64,000 nucleotides of DNA from positions 6,979-70,978 of IMG/VR virus record IMGVR_UViG_3300021357_000002; one strand, given 5' to 3'. The notes below the pieces were generated by a model, which made no database searches, was not told the origin of the DNA, and saw only the letters and a list, made by a program, of their open reading frames with translations. Below are positions 1-20,447 of the stretch, piece by piece. The stretch comes from a virus. A program made the translations under genes and the position numbers. Position 1 is the stretch's first letter. Each line of letters opens with the position of its first letter.

Positions 1-160
1 ACTTTGGATTTATCAGAATGTTTAAACCATCCGTACAAGCTGTAGGAATGGTATCGTCCCACTTAAGCTGAAGTGAGCAAAAGATAGAACAGATAAAAGC
101 ATTCTTACTCTTAGCAAACAAATCTACTTTAGCTAAATCTAATGCCTTGTCTTTATCCAA
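1..160 (-). CDS. 5' part of DUF2201-type metallopeptidase/VWA-like protein (N4 gp25-like), truncated by window edge
   Basis: Manual translation from TTG at 160 after an AGGAGG RBS: LDKDKALDLAKVDLFAKSKNAFICSIFCSLQLKWDDTIPTACTDGLNILINPK. The TACTDG..I.INP motif is typical and the gene follows a MoxR ATPase. Confidence 0.6.
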   Translation of the reverse strand, partial: MDKDKALDLAKVDLFAKSKNAFICSIFCSLQLKWDDTIPTACTDGLNILINPK

Positions 161-170
161 AGGAACCTCC

Positions 171-1187
171 TTAGAGCATTCCTTCACCGGAATCATTGGC
201 ATAGCGAGTAACCCAATCCATAACCTCAGGAACTGCTGAAATCATTGGTTTGGCTTTAAACGCATTGCTCAATGCAACAATTTGGAATTCTACTGGTAGA
301 CGATTGATGAACTTCATCAATTGAGGGGCATTTTCTACAGTGATAGAAGATGCAGCATAACCAGCATAAGCAAACTTAACATCAGGACGGTCTTTGATAA
401 CGATACCTTCTGGATTAGCCAGAATCTCTTCAATAGAAGAAACGTCGCCATAGATAGCGCAATACTCAATGAATTCACGAGCAGCACCTCTACCGATTAC
501 ACCCGACAATAAGCCTAAATCAGTTTTGATATCCACTTCCAAACCATTAATGGCTCGGTTAGTGAAGTCCCATGTACGAGGACAAGGGAATGTTTCTCTT
601 AAGTTCTTTGGGTCAAACTTATGAAAGAGTTCTTTCTTAAAGTTTAAGAAGCTTAAGATACGATGGTCTATCTTTTCGGCTATCGCCCAAACAGACCAAT
701 CATCGAAGTTAACTTCTAACTCCATAGAGACAATACGAGACAGAGTTGCACTACTCATTGTGGTAGTAATTGCACCGTCTGTATCTTTGTTGCCAGCCGC
801 AGCAATATACACTTGAGGATGGAGTTTGGTTTGACCAACCATTCCATCTAATAGTTTGTATGCAGCAGCTTGTACGGCTTTAGGTGCAGTATTCATTTCA
901 TCAAGAAATAGTAACCAGCCGTTATAACCTTCAGGGATTACATCCCCAACAATTGGAATGTCTTTAGGTGGATGATACACCGAACGACCATTCTCAATAT
1001 TTGGAAAGCCCAGCAAATCAGTTGGGTCACACTGACCTAAACGAAGGTCAATAACCTTTAACTTTGCTTCTTTAGCAATCTGGCGAATGATTGCAGACTT
1101 ACCAATACCTGGACTACCTTTAATAAAAGGAACTAGTCCTGCCGCAAAAGCTCTTTCAATAGCTTTTTTAATAGCTGAAGGACGCAT
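171..1187 (-). CDS. MoxR-like AAA+ ATPase (N4 gp24-like)
   Basis: Walker A GSPGIGKS, DLRLGQCDPTDLLGFP, Walker B LFLDE, PRTW motif. Start moved to MRPSAIKK (1187) on RBS grounds. Confidence 0.85.
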   Translation of the reverse strand: MRPSAIKKAIERAFAAGLVPFIKGSPGIGKSAIIRQIAKEAKLKVIDLRLGQCDPTDLLGFPNIENGRSVYHPPKDIPIVGDVIPEGYNGWLLFLDEMNTAPKAVQAAAYKLLDGMVGQTKLHPQVYIAAAGNKDTDGAITTTMSSATLSRIVSMELEVNFDDWSVWAIAEKIDHRILSFLNFKKELFHKFDPKNLRETFPCPRTWDFTNRAINGLEVDIKTDLGLLSGVIGRGAAREFIEYCAIYGDVSSIEEILANPEGIVIKDRPDVKFAYAGYAASSITVENAPQLMKFINRLPVEFQIVALSNAFKAKPMISAVPEVMDWVTRYANDSGEGML

Positions 1188-1237
1188 GAGATTACCTTTG
1201 CAGAATAAAAAGCCCACCATTTAGGTAGGCTTAAGGA

Positions 1238-1570
1238 TTAACCAACTTTCAGAAGACGACGAGAATCCATTAAGAATGGAACCACATCACCATCTTCATC
1301 GACGATATGGATAACACAATCATATAACATTGCCGCAGCAGGGCTACCGGGACTCATGTCATTAGCCAATTCATACCCGCGTAAAGCTTTTGGCAGGAAT
1401 TCGGTAACAATACCCGGACGGTCTTCTTCAGGGAATTTAAAGAATCCCGGATTAGCAGGGTGCAGAATTACGATATCCCCTACAGAAATCTGCTGATGGG
1501 ATACGAACATTGCATTGAATGCATTGCGTAATGCATCAATCTTTTCGATTTCAATCTCTGGTTTTGCCAT
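1238..1570 (-). CDS. hypothetical protein
   Basis: 110-aa ORF with GAGG RBS, co-oriented in the operon. Confidence 0.7.
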   Translation of the reverse strand: MAKPEIEIEKIDALRNAFNAMFVSHQQISVGDIVILHPANPGFFKFPEEDRPGIVTEFLPKALRGYELANDMSPGSPAAAMLYDCVIHIVDEDGDVVPFLMDSRRLLKVG

Positions 1571-1624
1571 TATATTGGCTCCTATTCAGATGTTAAAACA
1601 GAGAATCAAATGATTCCCAAAGAA

Positions 1625-2050
1625 TTATTTCTGTGCAGCAGGATGGATGAAGAACACACCTGCAACGCCAGTAGGCAGCGTATATTGAGATTCAACATAC
1701 GTTACGGTTGGAGCACGACCAAAGTTCTCTTCGAACTCACGCCATGCATGTAAACCGATTTCCAGATTTTCCATGATGATTTCATCATTGAATTTCTGTT
1801 TTTCCAGATGGTTCAGAACATCCATAGCAAACTGGTGACGTTCCAGACAGGTGCAGCCAGCAGCTTTATGGTCATGGCTATCGGCAATTTCTTTGCCCAT
1901 TTCTTCCAGCAACTCACGAGGAGTCTGGCTAGCTCGGGACAGATGGTCCAACATACCAACACCAACTACGGCAATTACTTTATGACCAGAGTTCAGCATC
2001 AGGTCTTTAACGATTGCTACAGCTTCTTTTTGCTTATCGGACAGTGCCAT
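1625..2050 (-). CDS. hypothetical protein
   Basis: ORF track gives 1625-2098; probable start MALSDKQ at 2050, coupled to the upstream stop. Confidence 0.65.
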   Translation of the reverse strand: MALSDKQKEAVAIVKDLMLNSGHKVIAVVGVGMLDHLSRASQTPRELLEEMGKEIADSHDHKAAGCTCLERHQFAMDVLNHLEKQKFNDEIIMENLEIGLHAWREFEENFGRAPTVTYVESQYTLPTGVAGVFFIHPAAQK

Positions 2051-2051
2051 T

Positions 2052-2363
2052 TCATTTACCTTCAGATTGTTTAACAAGTTGTTCCAACAGTTGAGCAATA
2101 CCAGTACCGAGTTCTTCGATACGTTCCCCTAACTGCTGAAGAGAAGTGAGTTCGCTTTCACGAACTTCTTTATTAATTAAACTTTTCGCTAAAGAGTTAA
2201 GGGACTGGAAGTAACCAATATTACTTAAGTTAACTGTTCCAGCTTTAACTCCAGATTGAATAGTTTTCTTTTCAGCCAACACATATGTATAACCATTGGA
2301 AGTAACTACGTACTTATCACCAATAGGAATATTAAGTTTGGAGACTGGTTCTTTAGCCATCAC
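2052..2363 (-). CDS. DUF5405-like phage protein
   Basis: IPIGDKYVVTSNGYTYVLAEKK...GYFQSLNSLAKSLINKEVRESELTSL resembles DUF5405. Confidence 0.6.
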   Translation of the reverse strand: MMAKEPVSKLNIPIGDKYVVTSNGYTYVLAEKKTIQSGVKAGTVNLSNIGYFQSLNSLAKSLINKEVRESELTSLQQLGERIEELGTGIAQLLEQLVKQSEGK

Positions 2364-3135: not shown

Positions 3136-4071
3136 TTACCATTCCATAGACACACCAGCACCAAAGACGAAATCATCTTGAGTGGTGGCAGCTACTGATG
3201 CTTTGGTTACTACATTCTCGTTAAAACGAGCACTCATACCAACAGCAAGACCTTGTTCACTGTCATATGAGCCAACGCCAGCACCAACTGAGAATGAACT
3301 ATTCTGACTTACCTGCGGGATATTAGCCATAGCAGCTACACCTGCGATACCAGCAGAAGCATTCTTACGGTTCTCATCAATACGTTTACCCATATTGGCA
3401 AAACGTTGATTGGTGGATTTTTCAAAAGCATCCTGACGCTTAGAGATAGATTTATTGGCTTCGGTATTAGCATTGACCTGAGTCATATCTGCATCTTTAC
3501 CATTCAGGCCATTAACTCCAGCAATACCTTGTTTGCCTTCATCACCTTTAGCGCCATCTTTACCATCGGCTCCATTAAGACCGTCTTTCCCGTTAAGACC
3601 ATCTTTACCAGCAGTACCTGTTTCGCCTTGGATACCTTGCTCACCACGTTCACCTTGAGCACCAGTATCCCCTTTGGCTCCATCTTTGCCGTCAACACCA
3701 TCACGACCATTAGTACCGTTGATTCCATTTAATCCGTCCTTCCCATCCTTGCCAGATGCTCCGGTATCTCCCTTATCGCCTTTGTCACCTTTGGCTCCGT
3801 CGATACCATCCTTACCGTCTTTGCCATCTTGTCCTTTAATGACAGTGTGTTCACCATTAATAGTGACATTTTCAATATCACCAGTGAACTCCACATTTAA
3901 CTCGGAATTATTACAATTCCAAGTAGAGGCACATTGACTGATATGAACTAAACCAGTTCCATCACCAACAACAGTAACATCTCCACGAGAGTTGTTATTG
4001 TTATCCTTTGCTACAGAAGCAAAAGACATAGAGGCCAATGTAAGGCCGAGTACTACTACAATTTTACGCAT
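3136..4071 (-). CDS. YadA-type trimeric autotransporter anchor protein with collagen-like Gly-X-Y repeats
   Basis: Signal peptide, long GXY run, coiled coil, then ASAGIAGVAAMANIPQ...VGAGVGSYDSEQGLAVGMSARF...FVFGAGVSMEW beta-barrel anchor ending in W. Confidence 0.9.
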   Translation of the reverse strand: MRKIVVVLGLTLASMSFASVAKDNNNNSRGDVTVVGDGTGLVHISQCASTWNCNNSELNVEFTGDIENVTINGEHTVIKGQDGKDGKDGIDGAKGDKGDKGDTGASGKDGKDGLNGINGTNGRDGVDGKDGAKGDTGAQGERGEQGIQGETGTAGKDGLNGKDGLNGADGKDGAKGDEGKQGIAGVNGLNGKDADMTQVNANTEANKSISKRQDAFEKSTNQRFANMGKRIDENRKNASAGIAGVAAMANIPQVSQNSSFSVGAGVGSYDSEQGLAVGMSARFNENVVTKASVAATTQDDFVFGAGVSMEW

Positions 4072-5614: not shown

Positions 5615-5806
5615 TTAGCTGAGCATATAGTTACTCTGACGAATGAGAGTAGACAGGTCATTAGACAGTTTGCCTACCGGAACACGTTTACCTGCAATTT
5701 GAGATGCCATAGCTTGCAGCATTGTGCTATCTGCAATTTGAGCAAAGATATCGATATAGTTCTGACGTACTTCATTCATGTACAAAGGATGACATTTGAA
5801 GCAATC
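5615..5806 (-). CDS. RNA polymerase II subunit 2 (N4 gp16-like), exon 2
   Basis: Begins DCFKCHP; joined to exon 1 it restores catalytic motif C (AIH|DCF). Confidence 0.9.
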   Translation of the reverse strand, partial: DCFKCHPLYMNEVRQNYIDIFAQIADSTMLQAMASQIAGKRVPVGKLSNDLSTLIRQSNYMLS

Positions 5807-6604
5807 CAAAGATTCAAGGTAAGACGCTACTCTTACCTTCGTTGTTAACTGCCTTAGATTTCTCTAAGGATTGGACTATATCATCTACGTTACCGTAGCT
5901 TCGCACTTCGACCACCAATAGCTTGTGGCCTACTCTACTCAGTTCACCATATGGTGCTTTTCGATAGTCTCTGAACCTTCCTTAAAAATACTGGTCGGAT
6001 ATATTTTTCCAGTATCTTTTACTCATGATGCCCTTAATCTGGCATCTTGAACGACTATATTTCTTAGAGAGTTCTGTAACAGTAAAAGTACTTTGTGCAA
6101 TATCACTACAAAGTAGATGCACTTCTTCAGCAGTAAGCTGTTTATAGCTTCTTTTGCTTTTGTTAGTGCAATTACGACTTCTCACCGAATCTAATAAGTT
6201 AGATATACCATTATTGTTTCTAACAGAATCAAAATGGTCTACCTCTTCTGGAATATATCCATGATACAACCAGAAGATTAATCGATGCTTCATTCGTAAT
6301 TTACCATTACACCATACACGTACATAACCATCTTGGTTTAAAGACCCGATATCTAACGATACTCGTTTCTTCCCACCTTTTTGATTAACTAGTACGTCCA
6401 ACCTACCTGTAGAAAAATCTACAGATTTTAATTGGTTCTCTTTGAAATAAATAAAGTCTTGTTCTTCTTGAGTCATACTGTTCTCCCCTTTGTATATTAT
6501 TACTATACATGTAGGGTTTACTAAGTACAAGGCTTGGCTGCTGATTGGCATATCCTAAAGGACTTAGCTTTCCAGCAATTCACGAAGTTTTAAATCCACC
6601 ATTG
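5807..6604 (-). mobile_element. group I intron (IA-like, 798 nt) in the RNAP II subunit 2 gene
   Basis: P1 AUCCAU/GUGGAU with U.G at the 5' splice site; core motifs P (AATTGCTGGAAA), Q (AATCAGCAG), R (GTTCAGAGACTA), S (GATATAGTCC); terminal G at 5807; splicing restores frame. Confidence 0.92.
5982..6476 (-). CDS. intron-encoded HNH homing endonuclease with C-terminal HTH-like region
   Basis: HRLIFWLYHGYIPEEVDHFDSVRNNNGISNL; lies between intron Q and R motifs; start MTQEEQ after a GGGGAG RBS. Confidence 0.85.
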   Translation of the reverse strand: MTQEEQDFIYFKENQLKSVDFSTGRLDVLVNQKGGKKRVSLDIGSLNQDGYVRVWCNGKLRMKHRLIFWLYHGYIPEEVDHFDSVRNNNGISNLLDSVRSRNCTNKSKRSYKQLTAEEVHLLCSDIAQSTFTVTELSKKYSRSRCQIKGIMSKRYWKNISDQYF

Positions 6605-7651
6605 ATGGATTGCAACGATTGGGAATGGTTTATGAGCCAACATCTTCTCAATGATTTCGATGAGTTGGTTCTTAATCCAGAGAGGTACTAAATGAACATT
6701 CAGATGGTCAATATACTCAACTAATACAGCAGATACAAAACGATGTTTTTCAGCTAACTGTACAGCCCTCTGAAGCTTCTTATCATTTACGGTATAGTTC
6801 ACAATACCTGTAGTAGCAGAACCTGTCAGAAGCTCATACACACGTTGTACTTTGACCTTATCATAGTTAGCACGACGATTCATTTCACGTACTACCATCC
6901 CATCCACTGAGTGAATAGTATTAGCAGCAAGTGATAGACCAAAGTCCTGACCTTCATTAACCCAATAGCGGTGAGTGAATGAGCTATCCAGTTCATTTAC
7001 TTCAAAGCTTGCTTCCTTCATGGTCATTACCTTAACGACAGCAGTGAAGCCGTCTGGTAATTCCCACATATGCTGAAGTGCTTTAGGCTGCCAGAGATTA
7101 ATTAAATCATCCCGCAGCATGTTTGCACCTGGTGCAATAATTTGAACCATCTCATAGAACTTTTGAAGCTCTATAGTGTTCTCACCAAACACACTCTTAG
7201 GGTTGGCTTGAGAGCCATAGAAGTGTGTCATAATCGCGCCCTTAACATCTTTACGGTCTACCTTATCAATCTTACCTTCCAGCAGATTGCCCATGACTTT
7301 ATAGCCATCGGTATACGCATCCTTACGTACATTAGGGTTAACCAGATTTACTGTTTCAGCAGTAACCTTACAGCCTGTGAGTGCAGCCATGCACTGTAAT
7401 CCAGATGCAGTAGCATCCATACCTACCATATAACCAATTGGTTTACCTTCGAGTACATCTTGGTAAGCCAACATACCTGCATAGAACTGAGCAGGTTCAT
7501 CTGCATCATCTACCAGACCAGATAAGCTACCCTTATTTTCATTGAACCAGTTAAGACGGTTATCGAATGTTTCTTTGTCTAAGCCAAAGGAGTTAGCTAC
7601 ATCTAATTTGATATACTGGAAAGCAGAGAAAGTTTGCATCTTGAGTCTCAC
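6605..7651 (-). CDS. RNA polymerase II subunit 2 (N4 gp16-like), exon 1
   Basis: T7-like motif A DATASGLQ, motif B RKDVKGAIMTHFYG, ANTIHSVDG; ends IVAIH at the splice site. Confidence 0.93.
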
Positions 7652-7860
7652 TTATTTAGTTGAGAGAAGGTTTGGATAATTTGGTCTGAATAAGCACTTG
7701 GGTGTCTTACTTGAAGTAGTGGGCATACTCCACATTGACTTTTACACTTCCAAGGATTTGTAAGTGTTCCTGTTAAATTGAATATATCTCCTCTACATGA
7801 ACCATCTTTAACTGAATAATTTCTGAATGAATCTAATATAAGAATCAATTCATCATTCAT
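7648..7860 (-). CDS. small Cys4 paralog family member
   Basis: MNDELILIL...C..C-KSQ-C-GV-C-PL...YSDQIIQ. Confidence 0.7.
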   Translation of the reverse strand: MNDELILILDSFRNYSVKDGSCRGDIFNLTGTLTNPWKCKSQCGVCPLLQVRHPSAYSDQIIQTFSQLNK

Positions 7861-8039
7861 AGATTCACCAATATTATCCGACTTGAATATCTATGTTCTG
7901 TATTACGGGATGTTAATATGCAGTTATGACAAGCAATACCTAAACAACTAAAATCTATAAATTTAGTTCCTAAACAGTTTTCTCCTAATTCAGATAGCTT
8001 TTTTAATTCTTTCAGAATTAGAACCAATTCTTTATTCAT
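7857..8039 (-). CDS. small Cys4 paralog family member
   Basis: MNKELVLIL...[12 protein letters not shown]...YSSRII. Confidence 0.7.
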
Positions 8040-8529
8040 TTCTTGGACGCCTATTTTGAGCCTGTACTTGCATAGTTACCCATCTGCAATTATCAGGAGA
8101 ATAGTTTCCATTTGTGTCTATACGGTCTATGGTTAAATCTTCTTTATACCCATTTTCATAAGCCCATTTTGAAAATGATTCATACTCATCCCATACAGAA
8201 TCTATGGATATCCCTCTACCACCATAATAGATATAGTCACTTGCATTAGAGTTATTACATCTCATTCGCATTCTGCACCAAATCCCATATAATCTGGCAC
8301 TAGATTCTCCATGTGTAGTTCTAATTTTCTTAATAGTAGCTTTTCTTAAACAGCCACAAGATTTTGTCCTTCCACTTTTAATTTCTGTTGTAGATTGTTC
8401 TTGTATATTCCCACAAGTACATTGGGTAACTACATAAAATACTTTTCGATTTCCTCTAATTCTTGGAGTTGCCTCACTTAAGACAGTTAATTGTCCAAAT
8501 ACTTGTCCTACTATATTTAATTTTTTCAT
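8032..8529 (-). CDS. free-standing HNH homing endonuclease
   Basis: [14 protein letters not shown]...[31 protein letters not shown]. Confidence 0.88.
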
Positions 8530-8538
8530 ATAGCCCTT

Positions 8539-8778
8539 TTATTCATTATCAGGAATGATTCCCAGCATCCTCCCTGCTGCATCTAAACCAAAGATAGTTT
8601 TCTTAATCTCTTCTTCGGAGAGATAGAACAATGCACATTTAGTTTTGTCGTGCTCAGCACCACAGAATTTTTCACATGCAGGATGGGTACTACAGAAATG
8701 CTTTTCTAACTCATCAGGGATATCACGCAGTAACAGTGTAATCTTAATGAGTTGTTCTGGTTTGGATAATTCAGCCAT
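8539..8778 (-). CDS. hypothetical Cys-containing protein (possible distant Cys4 paralog)
   Basis: QLIKITLLL...C-STHPA-C-EKF-C...C-ALF; lacks the CxxC pair. Confidence 0.6.
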   Translation of the reverse strand: MAELSKPEQLIKITLLLRDIPDELEKHFCSTHPACEKFCGAEHDKTKCALFYLSEEEIKKTIFGLDAAGRMLGIIPDNE

Positions 8779-8780
8779 TA

Positions 8781-9704
8781 TTAATCCTCAATAGGTACGA
8801 TTTCTTTATCAGCTAATTCAAGAATAGCTTTACGATAGGTATTTCCTTGATAGGAGACATGATACCCCTGACAGTAAGTACGACCTCTTTTGTCATACTT
8901 ATGGGTCAGATAGAATCTGTTTCCTTCATTGATGAGCATTGCAAATACACGCATAGATTCCTTTTCCATTTTCAGGAATGAATCAACTCGTGCTTTATAC
9001 TCATCAGCAGATTCATCAGCTTTAGCACTATCCAGATGCTTACGGTTATCCCTAATATTACGAATTACACGGTCATCCAGAGAGAAAGCTACTGAGTTAA
9101 ATCTGTTGATATTATCCAGACAGATATCAAACTCATGATGATTCTTTTTCAGAATCAGGGAATCCCATTTGATAGACAGATACCCACTACCAGTATTTGA
9201 TTTAACTGGTTCAGGAGGAACAAGCATAGGAGGTAGATATTGATACTGGTTAATCAGTTCCAATGTCTTTGGTTCAAGCTGTATACGAGATATCAGTTCC
9301 ATAGAGCCTGTAACGCTCATAGAGGCTGGAATCAGGTCAATGAGGTCTACCATAGCTGCTAATGAGATAAGCTCCCCAGCAGTTCTTATAGCCTCTTTCT
9401 GAGGCATAGTAGAAATCATTCCAGATACCATACCTACTATCTGGGTATACTTAGCCTTACCAAATTGAGCCAATGAACCAGCAACATCAATGTAGAAGTC
9501 TTCTAGGATGTTGGTATCCAACAATGCTAGACGTTTGTTCTTACTCTCGAAGTAATCACCTTCTAACCATTCTAGTGCTTTATCTACAGCAGCACTAACT
9601 AACTCCATAACTTCAGGTGAAGTTCTAATTTCATTTCTGATTAGGTCACGAGACTGATGACGGTTGAACATAGATTCAATCAGGAGTTGAGTTTCTTGTT
9701 TCAT
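8781..9704 (-). CDS. RNA polymerase II subunit 1 (N4 gp15-like)
   Basis: LPPMLVPP, FYLTHKYDKRGRTYCQGYHVSYQG (DxRGR motif). Confidence 0.92.
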   Translation of the reverse strand: MKQETQLLIESMFNRHQSRDLIRNEIRTSPEVMELVSAAVDKALEWLEGDYFESKNKRLALLDTNILEDFYIDVAGSLAQFGKAKYTQIVGMVSGMISTMPQKEAIRTAGELISLAAMVDLIDLIPASMSVTGSMELISRIQLEPKTLELINQYQYLPPMLVPPEPVKSNTGSGYLSIKWDSLILKKNHHEFDICLDNINRFNSVAFSLDDRVIRNIRDNRKHLDSAKADESADEYKARVDSFLKMEKESMRVFAMLINEGNRFYLTHKYDKRGRTYCQGYHVSYQGNTYRKAILELADKEIVPIED

Positions 9705-9906
9705 GGTTCATGACTTCCAATGTTTTATGGATTTGAGTGACAAATAATTCTTTGTCAGAATTTAAATAATGTGGATTGCCCATTGGACAATTACTGCAAA
9801 GTACATCAGGACATATAATTAAGTCACATATGTACTCTTTTGGAGCGTAGTCTTTGCGTTCAGGTAAATTATATATACTATTTAAAATAGTAATTAATTT
9901 ATCCAT
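9676..9906 (-). CDS. small Cys4 paralog family member
   Basis: MDKLITIL...C-DLII-C-PDVL-C-SN-C-PM. Confidence 0.65.
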   Translation of the reverse strand: MDKLITILNSIYNLPERKDYAPKEYICDLIICPDVLCSNCPMGNPHYLNSDKELFVTQIHKTLEVMNHETRNSTPD

Positions 9907-10102
9907 TCAATTTCTCCAATACAGTAAATAACTGATTAGGGAAATTTCTTTCAGGGTAATTTACATATGTACTGCTGGATAATGGACAGAGTGTGCATGT
10001 TGAAATTTCAGCACATTTAAGACCAATATGGCACTGGCATAAAGTAAACTTTCCCTCTGAGAGGAGTAATTCTTTAAATATTATTATTAATTGGTTACCC
10101 AT
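9899..10102 (-). CDS. small Cys4 paralog family member
   Basis: Start MGNQLIIIF at 10102; C-Q-C...C-AEIST-C-TL-C-PL...YP. Confidence 0.65.
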   Translation of the reverse strand: MGNQLIIIFKELLLSEGKFTLCQCHIGLKCAEISTCTLCPLSSSTYVNYPERNFPNQLFTVLEKLNG

Positions 10103-10109
10103 ACTCACC

Positions 10110-10613
10110 TCAATAGGTGCAGACGATAAACCTGTCATCTAACAGAGGTTCAATAACCTTCTTTACATGGCTCCAGTTAAGTTCTCCAGCACCACATCCA
10201 ACACGAGGTAATAAGACTCTTTGCCAACCATATTGGTTAGCTAGTGCTACTAATTGCTGACATGAACGTACAATCAAATCGATGTTTGCTTTACATGCCC
10301 ATCCCGGAACTGTTGTACCTACAGGGAAGAACTTATGTTTAACAAAGTTCTCACCATTACTGATTTCAGTTATTGGTTTAACAGGGAAGGATACAATTCC
10401 AATGTTGTTATAATTTAGTAAGAAATGAACATTGTTACCTTCACGAGCAATCTTCTGTCCAAGGATTTTATCTAATCCAGGAATAGTTACTCGCATCTGC
10501 TTAGCAATACCTGCACCCATTACTGATGCACCATTACTTTTAACAAATCCATTGGCAGTAATGCACAATGCATCACATTCCATCTCAAGCATATTACCAC
10601 GAGCTTCTAACAT
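10110..10613 (-). CDS. macrodomain-like (ADP-ribose binding/hydrolase) protein
   Basis: DALCITANGFVKSNGASVMGAGIAKQ, IVSFPVK, VLLPRVGCGAGELNW. Confidence 0.75.
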   Translation of the reverse strand: MLEARGNMLEMECDALCITANGFVKSNGASVMGAGIAKQMRVTIPGLDKILGQKIAREGNNVHFLLNYNNIGIVSFPVKPITEISNGENFVKHKFFPVGTTVPGWACKANIDLIVRSCQQLVALANQYGWQRVLLPRVGCGAGELNWSHVKKVIEPLLDDRFIVCTY

Positions 10614-10638
10614 ATTTACCTCTGAGTTTATATTCTAC

Positions 10639-10658
10639 CCAACACAGCCGAAGGCTGT
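10639..10658 (-). promoter_or_regulatory. N4 vRNAP-type hairpin promoter
   Basis: Template (+) strand CC-9nt-GAA: CC AAC ACAGCC GAA GGCTGT. Confidence 0.75.
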
Positions 10659-10679
10659 AGAGCGGAGCGACAAGGAAAA

Positions 10680-10922
10680 CTAAATACGTTGAATAAGTCT
10701 TTCCAATTTAAGAGTGTAGAAGTTTTCTAATCTTTTGCTTCTAGAGAAATAACAGTTATTGCAATCCGTTGGATTGCCACTGATATAAGAAGTACATATC
10801 CTTCTAAATCTTAGTGCTCTACACAATTCAGGTTTTGAATCTATAAAAGATAATCCTGAATATCCTGTATGTTCTACTCTATGACATAGAGATTCTATTA
10901 TTGTTAGTAATTCTCTATTCAT
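10680..10922 (-). CDS. small Cys4 paralog family member
   Basis: MNRELLTII...C...C...C-NN-C-YF. Confidence 0.7.
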   Translation of the reverse strand: MNRELLTIIESLCHRVEHTGYSGLSFIDSKPELCRALRFRRICTSYISGNPTDCNNCYFSRSKRLENFYTLKLERLIQRI

Positions 10923-11094
10923 TAATTACTCCCCTTAAACTATCTAAGGCAAATAAGTAATCAGGTTCATGAAACAAAGGACAGTTGTTACAACTCACAT
11001 CATAACACTTCTTACTCTGACATATTTTCACACAGTAATTTCTTAATCTACTGTCATTCATATACATCAGTATTTCTATTAAATGCTGTTGCAT
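10915..11094 (-). CDS. small Cys4 paralog family member (59 aa, not in ORF track)
   Basis: MQQHLIEILMYMNDSRLRNYCVKICQSKKCYDVSCNNCPLFHEPDYLFALDSLRGVINE*; overlaps both neighbours. Confidence 0.65.
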   Translation of the reverse strand: MQQHLIEILMYMNDSRLRNYCVKICQSKKCYDVSCNNCPLFHEPDYLFALDSLRGVINE

Positions 11095-11264
11095 AATATT
11101 CTCTCACCCATTTTCATTACATAGTCTATATAATACTTTTCAGTATACGTAGGACATAGAATACAGTGCTCACAGGTTACCCAAGAACAACTAATATCAT
11201 AATTGGTACAATGTACTTTGTTATTTCTTAAGAGTGAGAGAATAAGTATTAACTCTTGGTTCAT
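11079..11264 (-). CDS. small Cys4 paralog family member
   Basis: MNQELILIL...C...C-SWVT-C-EH-C-IL. Confidence 0.7.
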   Translation of the reverse strand: MNQELILILSLLRNNKVHCTNYDISCSWVTCEHCILCPTYTEKYYIDYVMKMGERILCNSI

Positions 11265-11272
11265 TACTTCTC

Positions 11273-11503
11273 CTAGAAGGGAAGTGAATTTCCCAATACA
11301 ACACTGAAGATTGCATCACGTAGTGTTTTAAAATAACGAGTACCTACGTAATACATTTTCTTTTTACCGATAGGTCGCTTAAGAATGTAAGCAGAGATGC
11401 CATTAATATGGACTCCCCATAACTGTTCTTGACGACTATAAGTTACTATATAGTCAGGAACATTACCTAATTTAACTTCTACTGGTTTAGCTTTCTTTGA
11501 CAT
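11273..11503 (-). CDS. hypothetical basic protein
   Basis: 76-aa ORF with GAGGA RBS. Confidence 0.7.
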   Translation of the reverse strand: MSKKAKPVEVKLGNVPDYIVTYSRQEQLWGVHINGISAYILKRPIGKKKMYYVGTRYFKTLRDAIFSVVLGNSLPF

Positions 11504-11576
11504 AATGATATCCTCTTGGATTGAAGTACAACTATCTAACGAGACATTAATATTGGACTACCAATATTGATAGCCC

Positions 11577-11774
11577 TTAGATAACTTTGAGTATTTGGAT
11601 TATATATTTTCTTCCAGAATATGTTTTAGGTGGGAAAACACATTTACTACAGAATGTAGTATCTTCAGATATTCTTAATGAACATCTTCTATCTTTTCTC
11701 TTAGACCTAAGTAATATACATATATTACCTAATGTATTTAACTGTCTAAGTATAAAGATTAAATCTTCATTCAT
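11577..11774 (-). CDS. small Cys4 paralog family member
   Basis: Start MNEDLIFIL at 11774 (ATGA overlap); C...C...C-SK-C-VF...YIIQI. Confidence 0.7.
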   Translation of the reverse strand: MNEDLIFILRQLNTLGNICILLRSKRKDRRCSLRISEDTTFCSKCVFPPKTYSGRKYIIQILKVI

Positions 11775-11983
11775 AATATTTTCCATGTCTGGATTATTTT
11801 ATGTGCATATTGAGTTGAATCTTTATATCCAAGTATACAATCAATACAGCTAATATATGTACATCGTTCAGGGTCTGCATCATAGATAACATCACATAAA
11901 GAATCAGTAGATGTATTAAATTCTAACTGTTTCCCTAATGTATTCTTAATAGAACTGAGAATTAAAATTAAATCACTGTTCAT
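11771..11983 (-). CDS. small Cys4 paralog family member
   Basis: MNSDLILIL...C...C-TYIS-C-ID-C-ILGY...YAHKIIQTW. Confidence 0.7.
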   Translation of the reverse strand: MNSDLILILSSIKNTLGKQLEFNTSTDSLCDVIYDADPERCTYISCIDCILGYKDSTQYAHKIIQTWKIL

Positions 11984-12182
11984 CTATCCACCTTGTTATT
12001 AACAATCTGGGGTATATTTGATTATTACGATATCCTAATAAACAGTCATTACATTCATTGGCATTACAATCAATAATCTTACATACAGCTACACATAATA
12101 AATCTGAATCTACTACCCATCCTCCTTTGAATCTACGAGAGTTCATTAAAGTATTTAATATAAATAGCAATTCATTATTCAT
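11973..12182 (-). CDS. small Cys4 paralog family member
   Basis: MNNELLFIL...C-VAV-C...C-NANE-C-ND-C-LLGY...YPRLLI. Confidence 0.7.
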   Translation of the reverse strand: MNNELLFILNTLMNSRRFKGGWVVDSDLLCVAVCKIIDCNANECNDCLLGYRNNQIYPRLLITRWIDEQ

Positions 12183-12375
12183 TTACCTTACCTTTCACTT
12201 CAATGATTTGAATTGGATAGTTAGAAATATATACTTTACTTGTATTAAATAGGCATTCACTACATGGAATATCATTACACATTCTATGTATCATTATGTG
12301 GTTACATACTTTATTTCTATTACCTAATTTGAGAACAACTATTAGTTCTAATATATCTATCAAATCTCCATTCAT
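12175..12375 (-). CDS. small Cys4 paralog family member
   Basis: MNGDLIDIL...C...C-NDIP-C-SE-C-LF...YPIQII. Confidence 0.7.
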   Translation of the reverse strand: MNGDLIDILELIVVLKLGNRNKVCNHIMIHRMCNDIPCSECLFNTSKVYISNYPIQIIEVKGKVNE

Positions 12376-12759: not shown

Positions 12760-12788
12760 AAAAAATAAGGGATACCCGAAGGTATCCC
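12760..12788 (-). terminator. intrinsic terminator (UUCG loop)
   Basis: GGGATACC-TTCG-GGTATCCC-TTATTTTT. Confidence 0.8.
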
Positions 12789-12797
12789 ATTATTCGA

Positions 12798-13214
12798 TTA
12801 GCTCAATGCAGCCAGAATCTGAGCCATTGCATTGTTGCTGGCCTGATGTTCTTCCTGAGCCTTACGGCGATACAGTTGAACACTGAGCTTAGGCATCTCT
12901 GTACCAGTACCAGCATCCAGAGCTTCACCCATTTTGACCAGAGCTTTCAGAAGCTCATTACGAGCAGCAGCCTGCTCATTCCACTGTTGGTTATTACCAC
13001 GAATCACCAGTTCATTCATGGTATCCAACGGCAGGCCGAAAGGCAGAGACAGGAAGGTATCAACCATTTCACCTTCTTCGTTAGGCATCTGTACGTTGAT
13101 ACCAACGTTGATAAATACTTCAGCCTGTGGACGTTGTGCACCAGCAGCAGGTTTACCACCCAGAGCAGCACCGATGATAGAAGAAGCGTTGTTAGAACCG
13201 TTTATTACTGCCAT
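12798..13214 (-). CDS. N4 gp2/Drc-like ssDNA-binding RNAP II activator
   Basis: RPQAEVFINVG...FLSLPFGLPLDT...ARNELL...VQLYRR matches the N4 gp2 pattern as recalled; early position. Confidence 0.8.
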   Translation of the reverse strand: MAVINGSNNASSIIGAALGGKPAAGAQRPQAEVFINVGINVQMPNEEGEMVDTFLSLPFGLPLDTMNELVIRGNNQQWNEQAAARNELLKALVKMGEALDAGTGTEMPKLSVQLYRRKAQEEHQASNNAMAQILAALS

Positions 13215-13250: not shown

Positions 13251-13270
13251 CCACCAGCGACGAAGTCGCT
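13251..13270 (-). promoter_or_regulatory. N4 vRNAP-type hairpin promoter
   Basis: CC ACC AGCGAC GAA GTCGCT. Confidence 0.8.
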
Positions 13271-13302
13271 CTTACAGGAGAAGGAGAACTTAAGGGAGAA
13301 CT

Positions 13303-13323
13303 CCACCACCGTCGAAGACGGTG
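13303..13323 (-). promoter_or_regulatory. N4 vRNAP-type hairpin promoter
   Basis: CC AC CACCGTC GAA GACGGTG. Confidence 0.8.
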
Positions 13324-14931: not shown

Positions 14932-14950
14932 CCATTACTCACGAAGTGAG
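14932..14950 (-). promoter_or_regulatory. N4 vRNAP-type hairpin promoter
   Basis: CC ATTA CTCAC GAA GTGAG. Confidence 0.75.
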
Positions 14951-15557: not shown

Positions 15558-15576
15558 CCACTAGAGTCGAAGACTC
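15558..15576 (-). promoter_or_regulatory. N4 vRNAP-type hairpin promoter (first early promoter)
   Basis: CC ACTA GAGTC GAA GACTC. Confidence 0.8.
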
Positions 15577-19099: not shown

Positions 19100-19185
19100 T
19101 GGTGGGAGTAACGAGATTCGAACTCGTACAGCTATAAGCCGAGGGATTTTAAATCCCTTGTGTCTACCGATTTCACCATACTCCC
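19100..19185 (-). tRNA. tRNA-Leu(TAA)
   Basis: Cloverleaf, AGGGA-TTTAAAA-TCCCT anticodon arm, long variable arm, encoded CCA. Confidence 0.95.
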
Positions 19186-19187
19186 AT

Positions 19188-19264
19188 TGGTACACCCTAC
19201 TGGATTCGAACCAGTGACCTACTGCTTAGAAGGCAGTTGCTTCTATCCACTGAGCTAAGGATGC
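19188..19264 (-). tRNA. tRNA-Arg(TCT)
   Basis: ACTGC-CTTCTAA-GCAGT, T-loop TTCGAAT, CCA. Confidence 0.95.
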
Positions 19265-19265
19265 T

Positions 19266-19430
19266 TAGTACCCTCGTTTTGTCCGATGGTGAGGGTCCCC
19301 ATCTTCGTGCGCTTGGCTGGACTACCAGTTATTCATTTAAGAGTATGGCTATGAGAGGCAGGAAGCCCAGCCTTTTTACATACTAATAAACATACCGACC
19401 GGTCACGGATTGCAGAGTTACCTGCAAGTA
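19266..19430 (-). ncRNA. structured spacer RNA with H-type pseudoknot
   Basis: TTGCAG/CTGCAA hairpin, GGCTGG/CCAGCC stem, pseudoknot GATGG/CCATC plus ACCCTC/GAGGGT (19303-19270). Confidence 0.45.
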
Positions 19431-19506
19431 TGGCGATGGGATAGGGATTTGAACCCTAATATCACAGATTAACAGTCTGCTGCTTTACCGAGTTAGCTAT
19501 CCCATC
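19431..19506 (-). tRNA. tRNA-Asn(GTT)
   Basis: CAGA-CTGTTAA-TCTG, CCA. Confidence 0.93.
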
Positions 19507-19511
19507 ATAAT

Positions 19512-19597
19512 TGGCGGAAGATTGAGGAGTCGAACCCCTACCGTTACCAGCACCTCCGGGTTCAAACCGGATTGCCCACCACTGAGCGGAATCTTCC
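19512..19597 (-). tRNA. tRNA-Ser(TGA)
   Basis: TCCGG-TTTGAAC-CCGGA, long variable arm, G discriminator, CCA. Confidence 0.9.
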
Positions 19598-19600
19598 AAA

Positions 19601-19683
19601 TTCTTATTAAAGAGTCTCTAACCATCAGCGGTGAGGTAACACCCAATGGATGTTAGACTTGGCTAGAGACTCATTAATAAGAA
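19601..19683 (-). ncRNA. long-stem structured RNA
   Basis: TTCTTATTAA-T-GAGTCTCTAGCCA / TGGTTAGAGACTC-T-TTAATAAGAA with internal AACATCC/GGGTGTT hairpin. Confidence 0.5.
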
Positions 19684-19687
19684 CTTT

Positions 19688-19767
19688 TGATGAGGTGAGA
19701 CTCGAACTCACGTTCCTTCCCTTTGCCTAAGCATTGGTATTGTATTTGCCTATTATACGACTCATCA
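19688..19767 (-). pseudogene. pseudo-tRNA / tRNA-like RNA lacking a canonical anticodon loop and CCA
   Basis: Acceptor TGATGAG/CTCATCA, D stem GTAT/ATAC, T-arm GTGAG-TTCGAGT-CTCAC; anticodon arm has a 4-nt loop. Confidence 0.7.
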
Positions 19768-19775
19768 GGTTCCTG

Positions 19776-19900
19776 TTCTCGTTCACAGTGTCAGTTGTCT
19801 ATTCCAAACAGTCAATGGTCTACTCCCATCGTCGAGAAATTACCCTTTCCTATCGGGCCGCAACTACAAGTGTATTCCCCTAAGAGATACGAACTGTAGT
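19776..19900 (-). ncRNA. structured spacer RNA
   Basis: ACTACA/TGTAGT and TTCTCG/CGAGAA stems enclosing smaller hairpins. Confidence 0.4.
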
Positions 19901-19908
19901 CTATTGGA

Positions 19909-19985
19909 TGGTTGTCTCAACTAGATTCGAACTAGTGACCTTTCCCTTATCAGGGGAACGCTCTGACCTACTGAGCTATGAGACA
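19909..19985 (-). tRNA. tRNA-Ile(GAT)
   Basis: TCCC-CTGATAA-GGGA, CCA. Confidence 0.93.
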
Positions 19986-19988
19986 ATT

Positions 19989-20066
19989 TGGTGGTTCCAC
20001 CCGGTTTCGAACCTGGACACTCTCGGTTATGAGCCGAGTGCTCTAACCAGCTTGAGCTATGGAACC
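19989..20066 (-). tRNA. tRNA-Met(CAT), probably elongator (Ile2 not excluded)
   Basis: CTCGG-CTCATAA-CCGAG; paired G1-C72; U4-A69. Confidence 0.9.
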
Positions 20067-20071
20067 ATATA

Positions 20072-20158
20072 TGGCGGAAGATACAGGATTCGAACCTGTG
20101 GGACATTACATCCTATCGGTTAGCAACCGACTGCTTTCGGCCTCTCAGCCAATCTTCC
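20072..20158 (-). tRNA. tRNA-Ser(GCT)
   Basis: TCGG-TTGCTAA-CCGA, long variable arm, CCA. Confidence 0.93.
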
Positions 20159-20164
20159 AGTATT

Positions 20165-20248
20165 TGGTGTGGGATGATGGATTCGAACCACCGCGCCTTT
20201 CAGTGAGGATTTACAGTCCCCCGCAATCGACCACTCTGCCAACCCCAC
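20165..20248 (-). tRNA. tRNA-Tyr(GTA)
   Basis: GGGA-CTGTAAA-TCCT, variable arm, CCA. Confidence 0.93.
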
Positions 20249-20257
20249 ATATTTAGA

Positions 20258-20367
20258 TGGGCTTCTCACCCAATTGGACATTTGTTCTCTACTCCGCACC
20301 TAGCCTAATGGCTGTCTCAGCGTTTTGTTCCAGTGTCTACTGGAAGGTCTTCAGGTAGCGCTGAAGA
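20258..20367 (-). ncRNA. string of four hairpins between tRNA-Pro and tRNA-Tyr
   Basis: TCTTCAG/CTGAAGA, TTCCAGT/ACTGGAA, AGCC/GGCT, TGGGT/GCCCA. Confidence 0.4.
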
Positions 20368-20370
20368 TTT

Positions 20371-20447
<77 letters not shown>

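Follow-up and report, generated by a model that had tools for sequence, protein, structure and literature searches.

The stretch of DNA considered here comprises 64 kb (positions 6,979 to 70,978) of the 71,442-bp virus record IMGVR_UViG_3300021357_000002 and is called the window below. It shares ~90% DNA identity with Salmonella phage FSL SP-058 (hereafter SP-058) and its relatives, and contains an open reading frame (ORF) of 3,582 amino acids (aa) encoding the virion RNA polymerase (vRNAP). By sequence comparison, the phage is an Ithacavirus-like member of the subfamily Humphriesvirinae in the Schitoviridae, and is N4-like, of the Salmonella/Shigella type. In its leftward-transcribed early region, between a gp2-like gene and the genes for the RNAPII subunits, we find eleven small genes whose products form a single family of highly diverged four-cysteine (Cys4) proteins. 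They are listed here with their cysteine patterns, their bit scores against a hidden Markov model (HMM) built from the other ten members, and selected matches to PHROGs protein groups.

7648-7860, minus strand: o7648, 70 aa, C-x16-C-x3-C-x2-C; HMM 30.5 bits, rank 1; phrog_16571, E 4.6e-7
7857-8039, minus strand: o7857, 60 aa, C-x9-C-x4-C-x2-C; HMM 29.6 bits; phrog_16571, E 2e-23
9676-9906, minus strand: o9676, 76 aa, C-x4-C-x4-C-x2-C; HMM 27.0 bits
9899-10138, minus strand: o9899, 79 aa as the longest ORF; HMM 20.1 bits, rank 1
10680-10922, minus strand: o10680, 80 aa, its C-x2-C preceded by a longer spacer (C-x10); HMM 24.8 bits
10915-11094, minus strand: o10915, 59 aa; HMM 22.8 bits
11079-11264, minus strand: o11079, 61 aa, six cysteines; HMM 21.8 bits
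11577-11786, minus strand: o11577, 69 aa (65 aa if the start is at 11774), C-x11-C-x10-C-x2-C, basic, isoelectric point (pI) 9.9; HMM 23.5 bits
11771-11983, minus strand: o11771, 70 aa; HMM 38.6 bits; phrog_32354, E 1.5e-36
11973-12182, minus strand: o11973, 69 aa; HMM 28.0 bits
12175-12375, minus strand: o12175, 66 aa, C-x8-C-x4-C-x2-C; HMM 37.6 bits; phrog_28062, E 1.6e-33; the member chosen for modelling

A preliminary description, made from the letters of the window, had pointed to eleven Cys4 ORFs of 59-80 aa, and all of them are present at the positions it gave, on the minus strand. Their arrangement is also as described: the genes fall into four blocks, two members lie between the RNAPII subunit genes, and start/stop coupling is common, most genes overlapping by 4-16 nt. 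The stop of o7648 overlaps the start of the RNAPII large-subunit gene by 4 nt, and the 3' end of o9676 overlaps the start of the small-subunit gene by 29 nt. Most family starts are preceded by a Shine-Dalgarno-like motif. Judging from the better Shine-Dalgarno motif there, o9899 and o11577 probably start at an internal Met, which for o9899 is likely the Met at 10102 (9899-10102, 67 aa), with GAGGTGAGT just upstream. The genes are AT-rich: GC averages 0.294 in them and 0.392 in 19 genes nearby (Mann-Whitney p = 1.1e-5).

The mutual homology claimed for the eleven ORFs was examined with leave-one-out HMMs, each built from ten members and searched against 371 real ORFs of the window and 2,735 shuffled decoys, the latter including 100 shuffles per member as a control for Cys-rich composition. 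Every left-out member was recovered at rank 1 with 20.1-38.6 bits (E 8e-5 to 1.5e-10); the top decoys reached 10-14 bits and the top non-member real ORF at most 9 bits. The preliminary count of at least eleven proves to be exact, as a profile search of the complete 71,442-bp genome returned eleven matches, all within the window. The family is genuine, and its genes are coding and subject to selection.

A twelfth member, suggested for the ORF at 8539-8778 (minus strand, 79 aa), does not hold up. This separate Cys4 ORF between the RNAPII subunit genes is similar to the family in size class, in having an N-terminal amphipathic helix, four cysteines and a C-terminal helix, and in belonging to the same operon, but its sequence and profile similarity is not significant; with 3.8 bits (rank 138) in the leave-one-out search and a probability of 0.95% in hhalign against the profile of 96 family sequences, it was rejected as a demonstrable family member. 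It also evolves in the opposite way, being near invariant (99% aa identity and a nonsynonymous rate, dN, of 0 relative to SP-058; 62-88% identity in other genera), and it accounts for only six 90%-identity clusters among 5.8 billion proteins. N4 lacks a gene here, and the AlphaFold2 model of the protein is of low confidence, with a predicted local distance difference test score (pLDDT) of 58.7. The protein may be an RNAPII-associated factor.

Conserved core and predicted metal site

The motif that the preliminary description had seen in the window members is borne out by an alignment of 96 family sequences, in which Cys33, Cys38 and Cys41 (o12175 residue numbers) are invariant, the position of Cys24 is occupied by Cys in 93 sequences, His in two and Ser in one, M1, L5 and I8 are conserved at ≥90%, and Y53 is found in 82 of 93. 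Further conserved positions are N2, E4, L9, I/L12, L23, V36, P/I/L42, L/F43, I57, I58 and L/I64. Conservation is thus confined to heptad-spaced hydrophobic residues and the cysteines, and all other columns have an entropy of 2.8-4.1 bits, mostly near the maximum. The usual cysteine pattern is C-x(4-20)-C-x4-C-x2-C, with variants in which the x4 spacer ranges from x3 to x13. Among 49 members from five phages the pI varies from 4.2 to 10.2 with a median of 6.3, the strongly basic members lying at 9.2-10.2.

An AlphaFold2 model of o12175, calculated from the 96-sequence alignment without metal and of moderate confidence (mean pLDDT 78.6, predicted template modelling score 0.56), is all-helical with no strands, and places helices at residues 3-13, 17-30 and 53-64, with a dip in confidence over the loop bearing three of the cysteines. 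Because the conserved hydrophobic positions sit on these three predicted helices (L5, I8, L9 and I12 on helix 1, L23 on helix 2, and Y53, I57, I58 and L64 on helix 3), they probably form the core of the protein. This bears on the suggestion that members might form hetero-oligomers through their shared N-terminal helix: since that helix is one of the three predicted in this moderate-confidence model, its conserved hydrophobic face more likely belongs to the protein's own core than to an oligomer interface.

Metal binding by the family is plausible from the sequences, and a single structural Zn2+ would most likely be bound by the C-x4-C-x2-C loop between predicted helices 2 and 3 together with one cysteine of helix 2. 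The ligand conservation expected of a Zn(Cys)4 site is present, with three invariant positions and a fourth at which 93 of the 96 sequences have Cys; the replacement by His in two others is a typical ligand swap. No signal peptide or transmembrane segment was noticed on inspection of the member sequences, for which no prediction tool was used. We infer from this exchange of Cys for His, and from a probable location in the cytoplasm, that the site is a structural metal site, most likely for zinc. Zinc ribbons and treble clefs, which have two C-x2-C or C-x2-H knuckles on beta-hairpins, do not describe the family, as the members have one C-x2-C only and the metal-free, moderate-confidence model is helical and strand-free.

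Range, selection and exchange among phages

Searched with the family profile, a set of 1.84 billion representative proteins yielded 88 matches, ~85 of which are small proteins (55-89 aa) matched end to end, and a search of 5.8 billion clusters gave 56 matches, mostly on contigs of ~70 kb. Among three distant representatives, two lie in N4-like early regions adjoining Phage_N4_Gp2 and N4_GP8 genes, one of these also with RNA_pol, and the third is on a 1.3-kb contig containing small ORFs only. P0116 consists of two diverged family domains in tandem and gives no functional clue. Two large proteins were discarded as spurious: the score of P0057 (1117 aa) arises from a short Cys motif repeated 11 times, and P0069 (3205 aa), with ten matches to positions 32-52, was set aside for its similar multi-stretch pattern alone.

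In profile searches of whole records, ten Humphriesvirinae and Triduovirus genomes (Ithacavirus, Pollockvirus, Pylasvirus and Triduovirus) contain 7-13 copies each: 13 in SP154, 12 each in SP-058 and As2, 11 each in UTK0001, the phage under study and TR2 (Triduovirus), 10 in B2, 8 each in Pollock and KpCHEMY26, and 7 in Pylas. The number ranges from 10 to 13 within one genus. N4, G7C and LIT1 contain no copy in such searches, and Erwinia phage S6 has one frame only, interrupted by five stops. Enterobacter phage EcP1 (Eceepunavirus) has six weaker copies around its RNAPII gene; these are small Cys-rich ORFs at 28-2100 (plus strand) flanking the small-subunit gene, match the family profile at E 3e-7 to 1e-3, and have the L-C ... 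C-x2-C-P-[LF] layout in common with the family but a different C-terminus, so that by sequence they resemble a sister group that has diverged within a different genus. Several members are unannotated in deposited records, namely those at 3649-3849, 6298-6540, 6537-6710, 6707-6889, 7211-7417 and 7612-7845 of SP-058 and at 64263-64651 of B2.

On a tree of 49 members, copies cluster by genomic position across genera and not by phage; the phage labels require 33 changes, against a mean of 29.7 for shuffled labels. The expansion is therefore older than these genera, and the paralogs are, on this sequence evidence, ancient positional orthologs kept across at least four genera. For example, orthologs of o7648 occupy the corresponding position in SP-058, Pollock, Pylas and TR2, and o10680 falls in one clade with its SP-058 and Pylas orthologs.

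Relative to SP-058, the core neighbours are 93-99% identical at the amino acid level (RNAPII, 94-99%), whereas identity among the family members ranges from 28% to 94%, and SP-058 lacks any counterpart of o10915 and o11973. The ratio of nonsynonymous to synonymous rates (dN/dS) over whole genes spans 0.17-1.02 among family members, with a median of 0.40, compared with 0-0.34 for core genes, and dS itself is raised in the family, at 0.09-0.72 versus 0.08-0.27. When codons are separated by alignment column, dN/dS is 0.12 on 189 conserved-column codons versus 0.63 on 352 variable-column codons, with similar dS (0.49 and 0.43), and by segment it is 0.18-0.20 in the two terminal helices and 0.50-0.57 in the loops. 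This pattern indicates that selection clearly maintains the fold of the proteins, with weak constraint over most of the surface. A search for pervasive positive selection gave a maximum pooled segment dN/dS of 0.57, with one whole gene, o7648, reaching 1.02.

These results divide the earlier idea of a conserved scaffold with a hypervariable surface into two parts. A single paralogous family with a fixed core is retained (entropy above 3 bits off the core and cysteines, pI values from 4.2 to 10.2, and the contrast in dN/dS of 0.12 versus 0.63), but hypervariability driven by positive selection is not, as no segment reaches a dN/dS of 1. Much of the variability is instead exchange of discrete allele classes between phages. 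In Ithacavirus genomes, nucleotide identity drops sharply from 93-100% to 58-78% within family genes and recovers at gene junctions. Ortholog identity is bimodal for o9676 (97% to B2 and As2, 59% to SP-058 and SP154); o11079 is 93% identical to its orthologs in SP-058 and As2 and ~56% to those in B2, UTK0001 and SP154, and o12175 is 94% identical to the B2 ortholog and 59-73% to those of other Ithacavirus phages. The genes o10915 and o11973 are clean whole-gene indels relative to SP-058: the former is 96% gap in the SP-058 alignment and present in UTK0001, SP154 and As2 at 88-93%, and the latter has no ortholog in five Ithacavirus genomes, its nearest relative being a TR2 copy at 34% identity. 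Taken together, the identity drops, the bimodal orthologs and the raised dS reveal discrete allele classes exchanged by recombination, and both allele classes and whole genes are exchanged among phages that are otherwise >90% identical. Crossover probably takes place via the conserved gene ends.

Operon context and possible role

The genes and putative signals among which the family lies are as follows.

6590-7651, minus strand: RNAPII large-subunit (gp16-like) gene
8781-9704, minus strand: RNAPII small-subunit gene
10110-10613, minus strand: macro-domain protein, not a family member; PF01661 at 22.1 bits (cutoff 22)
10644-10658, minus strand: candidate vRNAP early-promoter hairpin from a perfect-stem scan; 6-bp stem, TTC loop on the coding strand (GAA on the template), then GTTGGG
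11273-11503, minus strand: N4 gp8-like host DNA-replication inhibitor, not a family member; PF25713 (N4_GP8), E 3.4e-26; between family blocks 3 and 4
12769-12788, minus strand: intrinsic-terminator-like hairpin, 8-bp stem with five G-C pairs and a T-run; separates the gp2-like gene from the upstream family blocks
12798-13214, minus strand: gp2-like gene
13256-13270 and 13307-13323, minus strand: two candidate vRNAP promoter hairpins with TTC loops, then GGTGGA-type motifs; upstream of the gp2-like gene
14938-14950 and 15564-15576, minus strand: candidate vRNAP promoter hairpins from the perfect-stem scan

The early promoters of N4 are template-strand hairpins centred at -11 that are recognised by the virion polymerase, and gp1, gp2, gp15 and gp16 are among its early products, which serve mainly host takeover (PMC4496689). 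In the window, five coding-strand hairpins of one design, with a stem of 5-7 bp, a TTC loop and a downstream GG-containing motif (GTGGAG, GGTGGA, GTTGGG or TAATGGG), are candidate vRNAP early promoters. The hairpin at 10644-10658 heads an operon consisting of the macro-domain gene (annotated in relatives as phosphatase or ADP-ribose-binding), o9899, o9676, the RNAPII small-subunit gene, the 8539 ORF, o7857, o7648 and the RNAPII large-subunit gene. The family is probably expressed early; its members share such putative hairpin-promoter operons with the RNAPII subunits, gp2, the gp8-like inhibitor and the macro-domain protein.

Some neighbouring genes deserve separate mention. The RNAPII large-subunit gene is split (5615-7651, minus strand): the ORF at 6590-7651 ends after 353 aa, just beyond a conserved I-H, where relatives run on for 412 aa; downstream of it lies a 189-aa HNH_3 endonuclease ORF (5982-6551, Pfam E 6.4e-9), and an ORF at 5615-5809 corresponds to the last 63 aa of the SP-058 large-subunit protein (90% match). 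Rfam group I intron models match at 6488-6577 (E 2e-5) and 5852-6103 (E 5e-5), both below threshold at ~29-30 bits against a gathering score of 50, and the split is consistent with a group I intron with a homing endonuclease, inserted at the catalytic motif. Between o7857 and the 8539 ORF, a 165-aa ORF (8032-8529, minus strand, GC 0.34) with no Pfam match at E ≤0.01 is missing from SP-058 (99% gap) and is probably a free-standing mobile or homing-type gene. Eight tRNA genes, all above the Rfam gathering score, are clustered at 19103-20447 (minus strand).

We propose, with a probability of roughly one half, that the family is a zinc-stabilised, mainly helical mini-scaffold that was expanded early in enterobacterial N4-like phages and is used as a diversified set of early binders, most likely against host targets. 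The eleven genes encode a single ancient family, specific to phages, whose soluble mini-proteins of ~65 residues would each have three predicted helices, a hydrophobic core and a Cys loop most likely holding a single structural Zn2+. The genes would probably be expressed at the start of infection by the virion polymerase, mostly with translational coupling. As only the core and the cysteines are constrained, the family may act as a fixed scaffold presenting many different surfaces, and its most likely use would be as a repertoire of small protein-binding inhibitors or adaptors, directed to different host proteins and serving host takeover or the neutralisation of defences. Phages that circulate together would renew this repertoire by exchanging whole genes and central 'allele' segments through homologous recombination, the conserved gene ends acting as crossover sites. 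Early-operon context, turnover and analogy make such an effector role, whether in anti-defence or in host takeover, plausible.

Several observations weigh against this proposal. No member matches any known anti-defence or host-takeover protein in Pfam, PHROGs, PADLOC or NCBIfam, and with neither such a match nor a structural analogue the function proposed here is drawn from context and evolutionary mode. Since no segment has a dN/dS above 1, an arms race is not demonstrated, and the variability is accounted for just as well by relaxed constraint together with recombination. The terminator-like hairpin is upstream of seven members (o12175 to o10680), which have no hairpin promoter of their own, so that their early timing is assumed; transcripts from the hairpins at 13256-13323 would need to pass the terminator at 12769-12788 to reach them, and likewise to reach the gp8-like gene, which is also behind the terminator and downstream of the gp2 promoters. 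Lastly, the translational coupling to both RNAPII subunit genes could point to a role directed at the phage itself.

The main rival explanation takes up this last point and regards the proteins as accessory factors that bind the RNAPII subunits, gp2, vRNAP, or phage DNA or RNA, and tune the early-to-middle switch. Members are indeed interleaved and coupled with both RNAPII genes (by overlaps of 4 nt for o7648 and 29 nt for o9676), Pollock, Pylas, TR2 and EcP1 retain both coupled positions, a strongly basic pI (9.2-10.2) is seen in some members, and Cys4 motifs are common in nucleic-acid-binding proteins. Nonetheless, we consider this role unlikely, given that the majority of members have an acidic or neutral pI, with a median of 6.3, that N4 and G7C use the same RNAPII/gp2 system without any copy of the family, and that partners as conserved as RNAPII (94-99%) would hardly tolerate 28-94% identity, allele swaps and loss of whole genes. 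A different explanation dispenses with function almost entirely: the genes would be dispensable, recombination-driven cassettes that persist mainly because their conserved ends favour duplication and exchange, while the phage gains little or nothing from them and the core reflects nothing but harmless folding. The retention of positional orthologs in at least four genera, the low dN/dS of core columns (0.12) and of both terminal helices (0.18-0.20), the upkeep of 7-13 copies, ~1/9 of all genes, by a virulent 71-kb phage, and the lack of any nuclease or other mobility function encoded by the family make this improbable, even though whole-gene indels, allele shuffling, copy numbers varying from 10 to 13 in one genus, the near-neutral dN/dS of variable columns (0.63) and a GC content (0.29) low like that of the phage's homing-endonuclease genes (0.34; core genes, 0.39) would all be expected of such cassettes.

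Least probable of all, and to our minds only a slim prospect, is that the members are iron-sulfur (Fe-S) or redox-active thiol proteins, which would hold a cluster or cycle between thiol and disulfide and thereby sense or alter the redox state of the host. The arrangement of three cysteines within nine residues (C-x4-C-x2-C) and a distant fourth resembles some cluster-binding motifs, and a structure search of the ESM Atlas lists Cys-cluster and Fe-S-assembly families, but as weak rows with template modelling (TM) scores of 0.41-0.49, below 0.5, on the Atlas's own model with a pLDDT of 0.58. No Fe-S family of Pfam or NCBIfam is matched at E ≤1, the spacing after the first cysteine (x4 to x20) and that of the x4 spacer (x3 to x13) fit a structural zinc site better than a cluster, and there is no obvious rationale for eleven redox proteins with unrelated surfaces.

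About 1/9 of the genes of these virulent phages of Salmonella, Shigella, E. coli and Klebsiella belong to this one family, which has no name, known fold or literature. If the proteins are the early inhibitors proposed above, each phage would supply 7-13 natural small binders, with allelic variants, which would offer a compact route to new host targets or defence antagonists and a system for studying the diversification of one mini-scaffold, and which may help account for why host ranges in Ithacavirus are narrow and differ between phages. If they are dispensable, they would constitute a clear case of a gene family sustained by recombination in a lytic phage. The proposal can be taken further, to a recombination-shuffled library of zinc-stabilised mini-binders in which each paralog and each allele class neutralises a different host defence or takeover target; we offer this extension tentatively and think it more doubtful than the proposal itself. 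Were it true, enterobacterial N4-like phages would carry a modular counter-defence repertoire built on one fold not described before, and co-infecting phages would swap specificities through the conserved gene ends, which would be built-in sites of crossover.

Comparison with known families and systems

The family lies outside every described family or fold, in agreement with the preliminary description, which could assign it no name. Searches of Pfam, NCBIfam and PDB sequences gave no significant match, and the only counterparts are four PHROGs groups, all labelled 'unknown function', of which phrog_16571 is matched by 74 of the 96 family sequences, phrog_32354 by 16, phrog_28062 by 15 and phrog_14146 by 14. 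All eleven window members match at least one of the four, nine at E 1.5e-36 to 9e-4 and two, o11079 and o11577, weakly (E 0.02 and 0.07), both being recovered by the leave-one-out family HMM. These groups thus contain the same proteins but split them four ways without function, fold or copy number, whereas they are one family with 7-13 copies per genome. At the curated cutoffs of Pfam no match was obtained, the only sub-threshold ones being zf-TRM13_CCCH (15.7 bits against a cutoff of 20.9, in one member) and LETM2_N (13 bits), and NCBIfam returned nothing relevant. No match to PADLOC-DB was found among ten members at E ≤0.1; as this database consists of defence-system proteins, the search tests only for mimicry of those. 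The sole match in PDB sequences, to a B-box zinc finger (TRIM28 B-box 2, PDB 2yvr), covers 34 positions of a Cys-rich stretch at E = 0.23 and was dismissed as chance. B-boxes differ from the family in coordinating two zinc ions through seven or eight ligands and in lacking flanking helices, and there is no fold match.

Searches with the o12175 model gave no structural analogue: the hits had E 7.5 or worse in the PDB (Foldseek), 3 or worse in BFVD and 4.5 or worse in AFDB clusters, and VIA-align against 48,161 chains gave a top Z of 4.8, within the stated noise for helical models. In the ESM Atlas the top TM of 0.61 belonged to a small helical antitoxin-like cluster, which is uninformative at such length. 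We found no paper describing the family in the literature on N4-like early genes, Humphriesvirinae, Schitoviridae transcriptomes or small zinc anti-defence paralogs.

Among individual phage proteins, lambda Ral (PF11058) offers an analogy: it is a small protein (66 aa) with four cysteines that is made early and modulates a host defence by restriction alleviation. It was also the nearest named cluster for o12175 in a feature search of the ESM Atlas, with a score of 0.83 that is in the chance range. Kinship was rejected, as hhalign gave 0.47%, hmmscan gave no match at E ≤1 and the Atlas match was not repeated with a second paralog; unlike the family, Ral is single-copy and has a different cysteine spacing, so that the likeness is one of analogy only. 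N4 gp8 (PF25713) is a small early host-takeover protein of N4-type phages, with a homologue within the gene cluster described here and beside family members in distant relatives, but it is unrelated in sequence, has no Cys motif, is single-copy and is 94% conserved relative to SP-058, and therefore provides context, not kin.

The early host-takeover regions of other phages, such as the class I genes of T7, the small early ORFs of T4 and the module of SPO1, likewise consist of small, AT-rich, fast-evolving and translationally coupled genes, many of them with products that inhibit host proteins. For the most part, unrelated ORFans make up those regions, whereas here one Cys4 family fills 7-13 genes that different genera retain as positional orthologs. 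Early phage genes that are small and evolve fast are a familiar class, within which a single Cys4 family that occupies 7-13 slots per genome and shuffles its alleles is an unusual variant.

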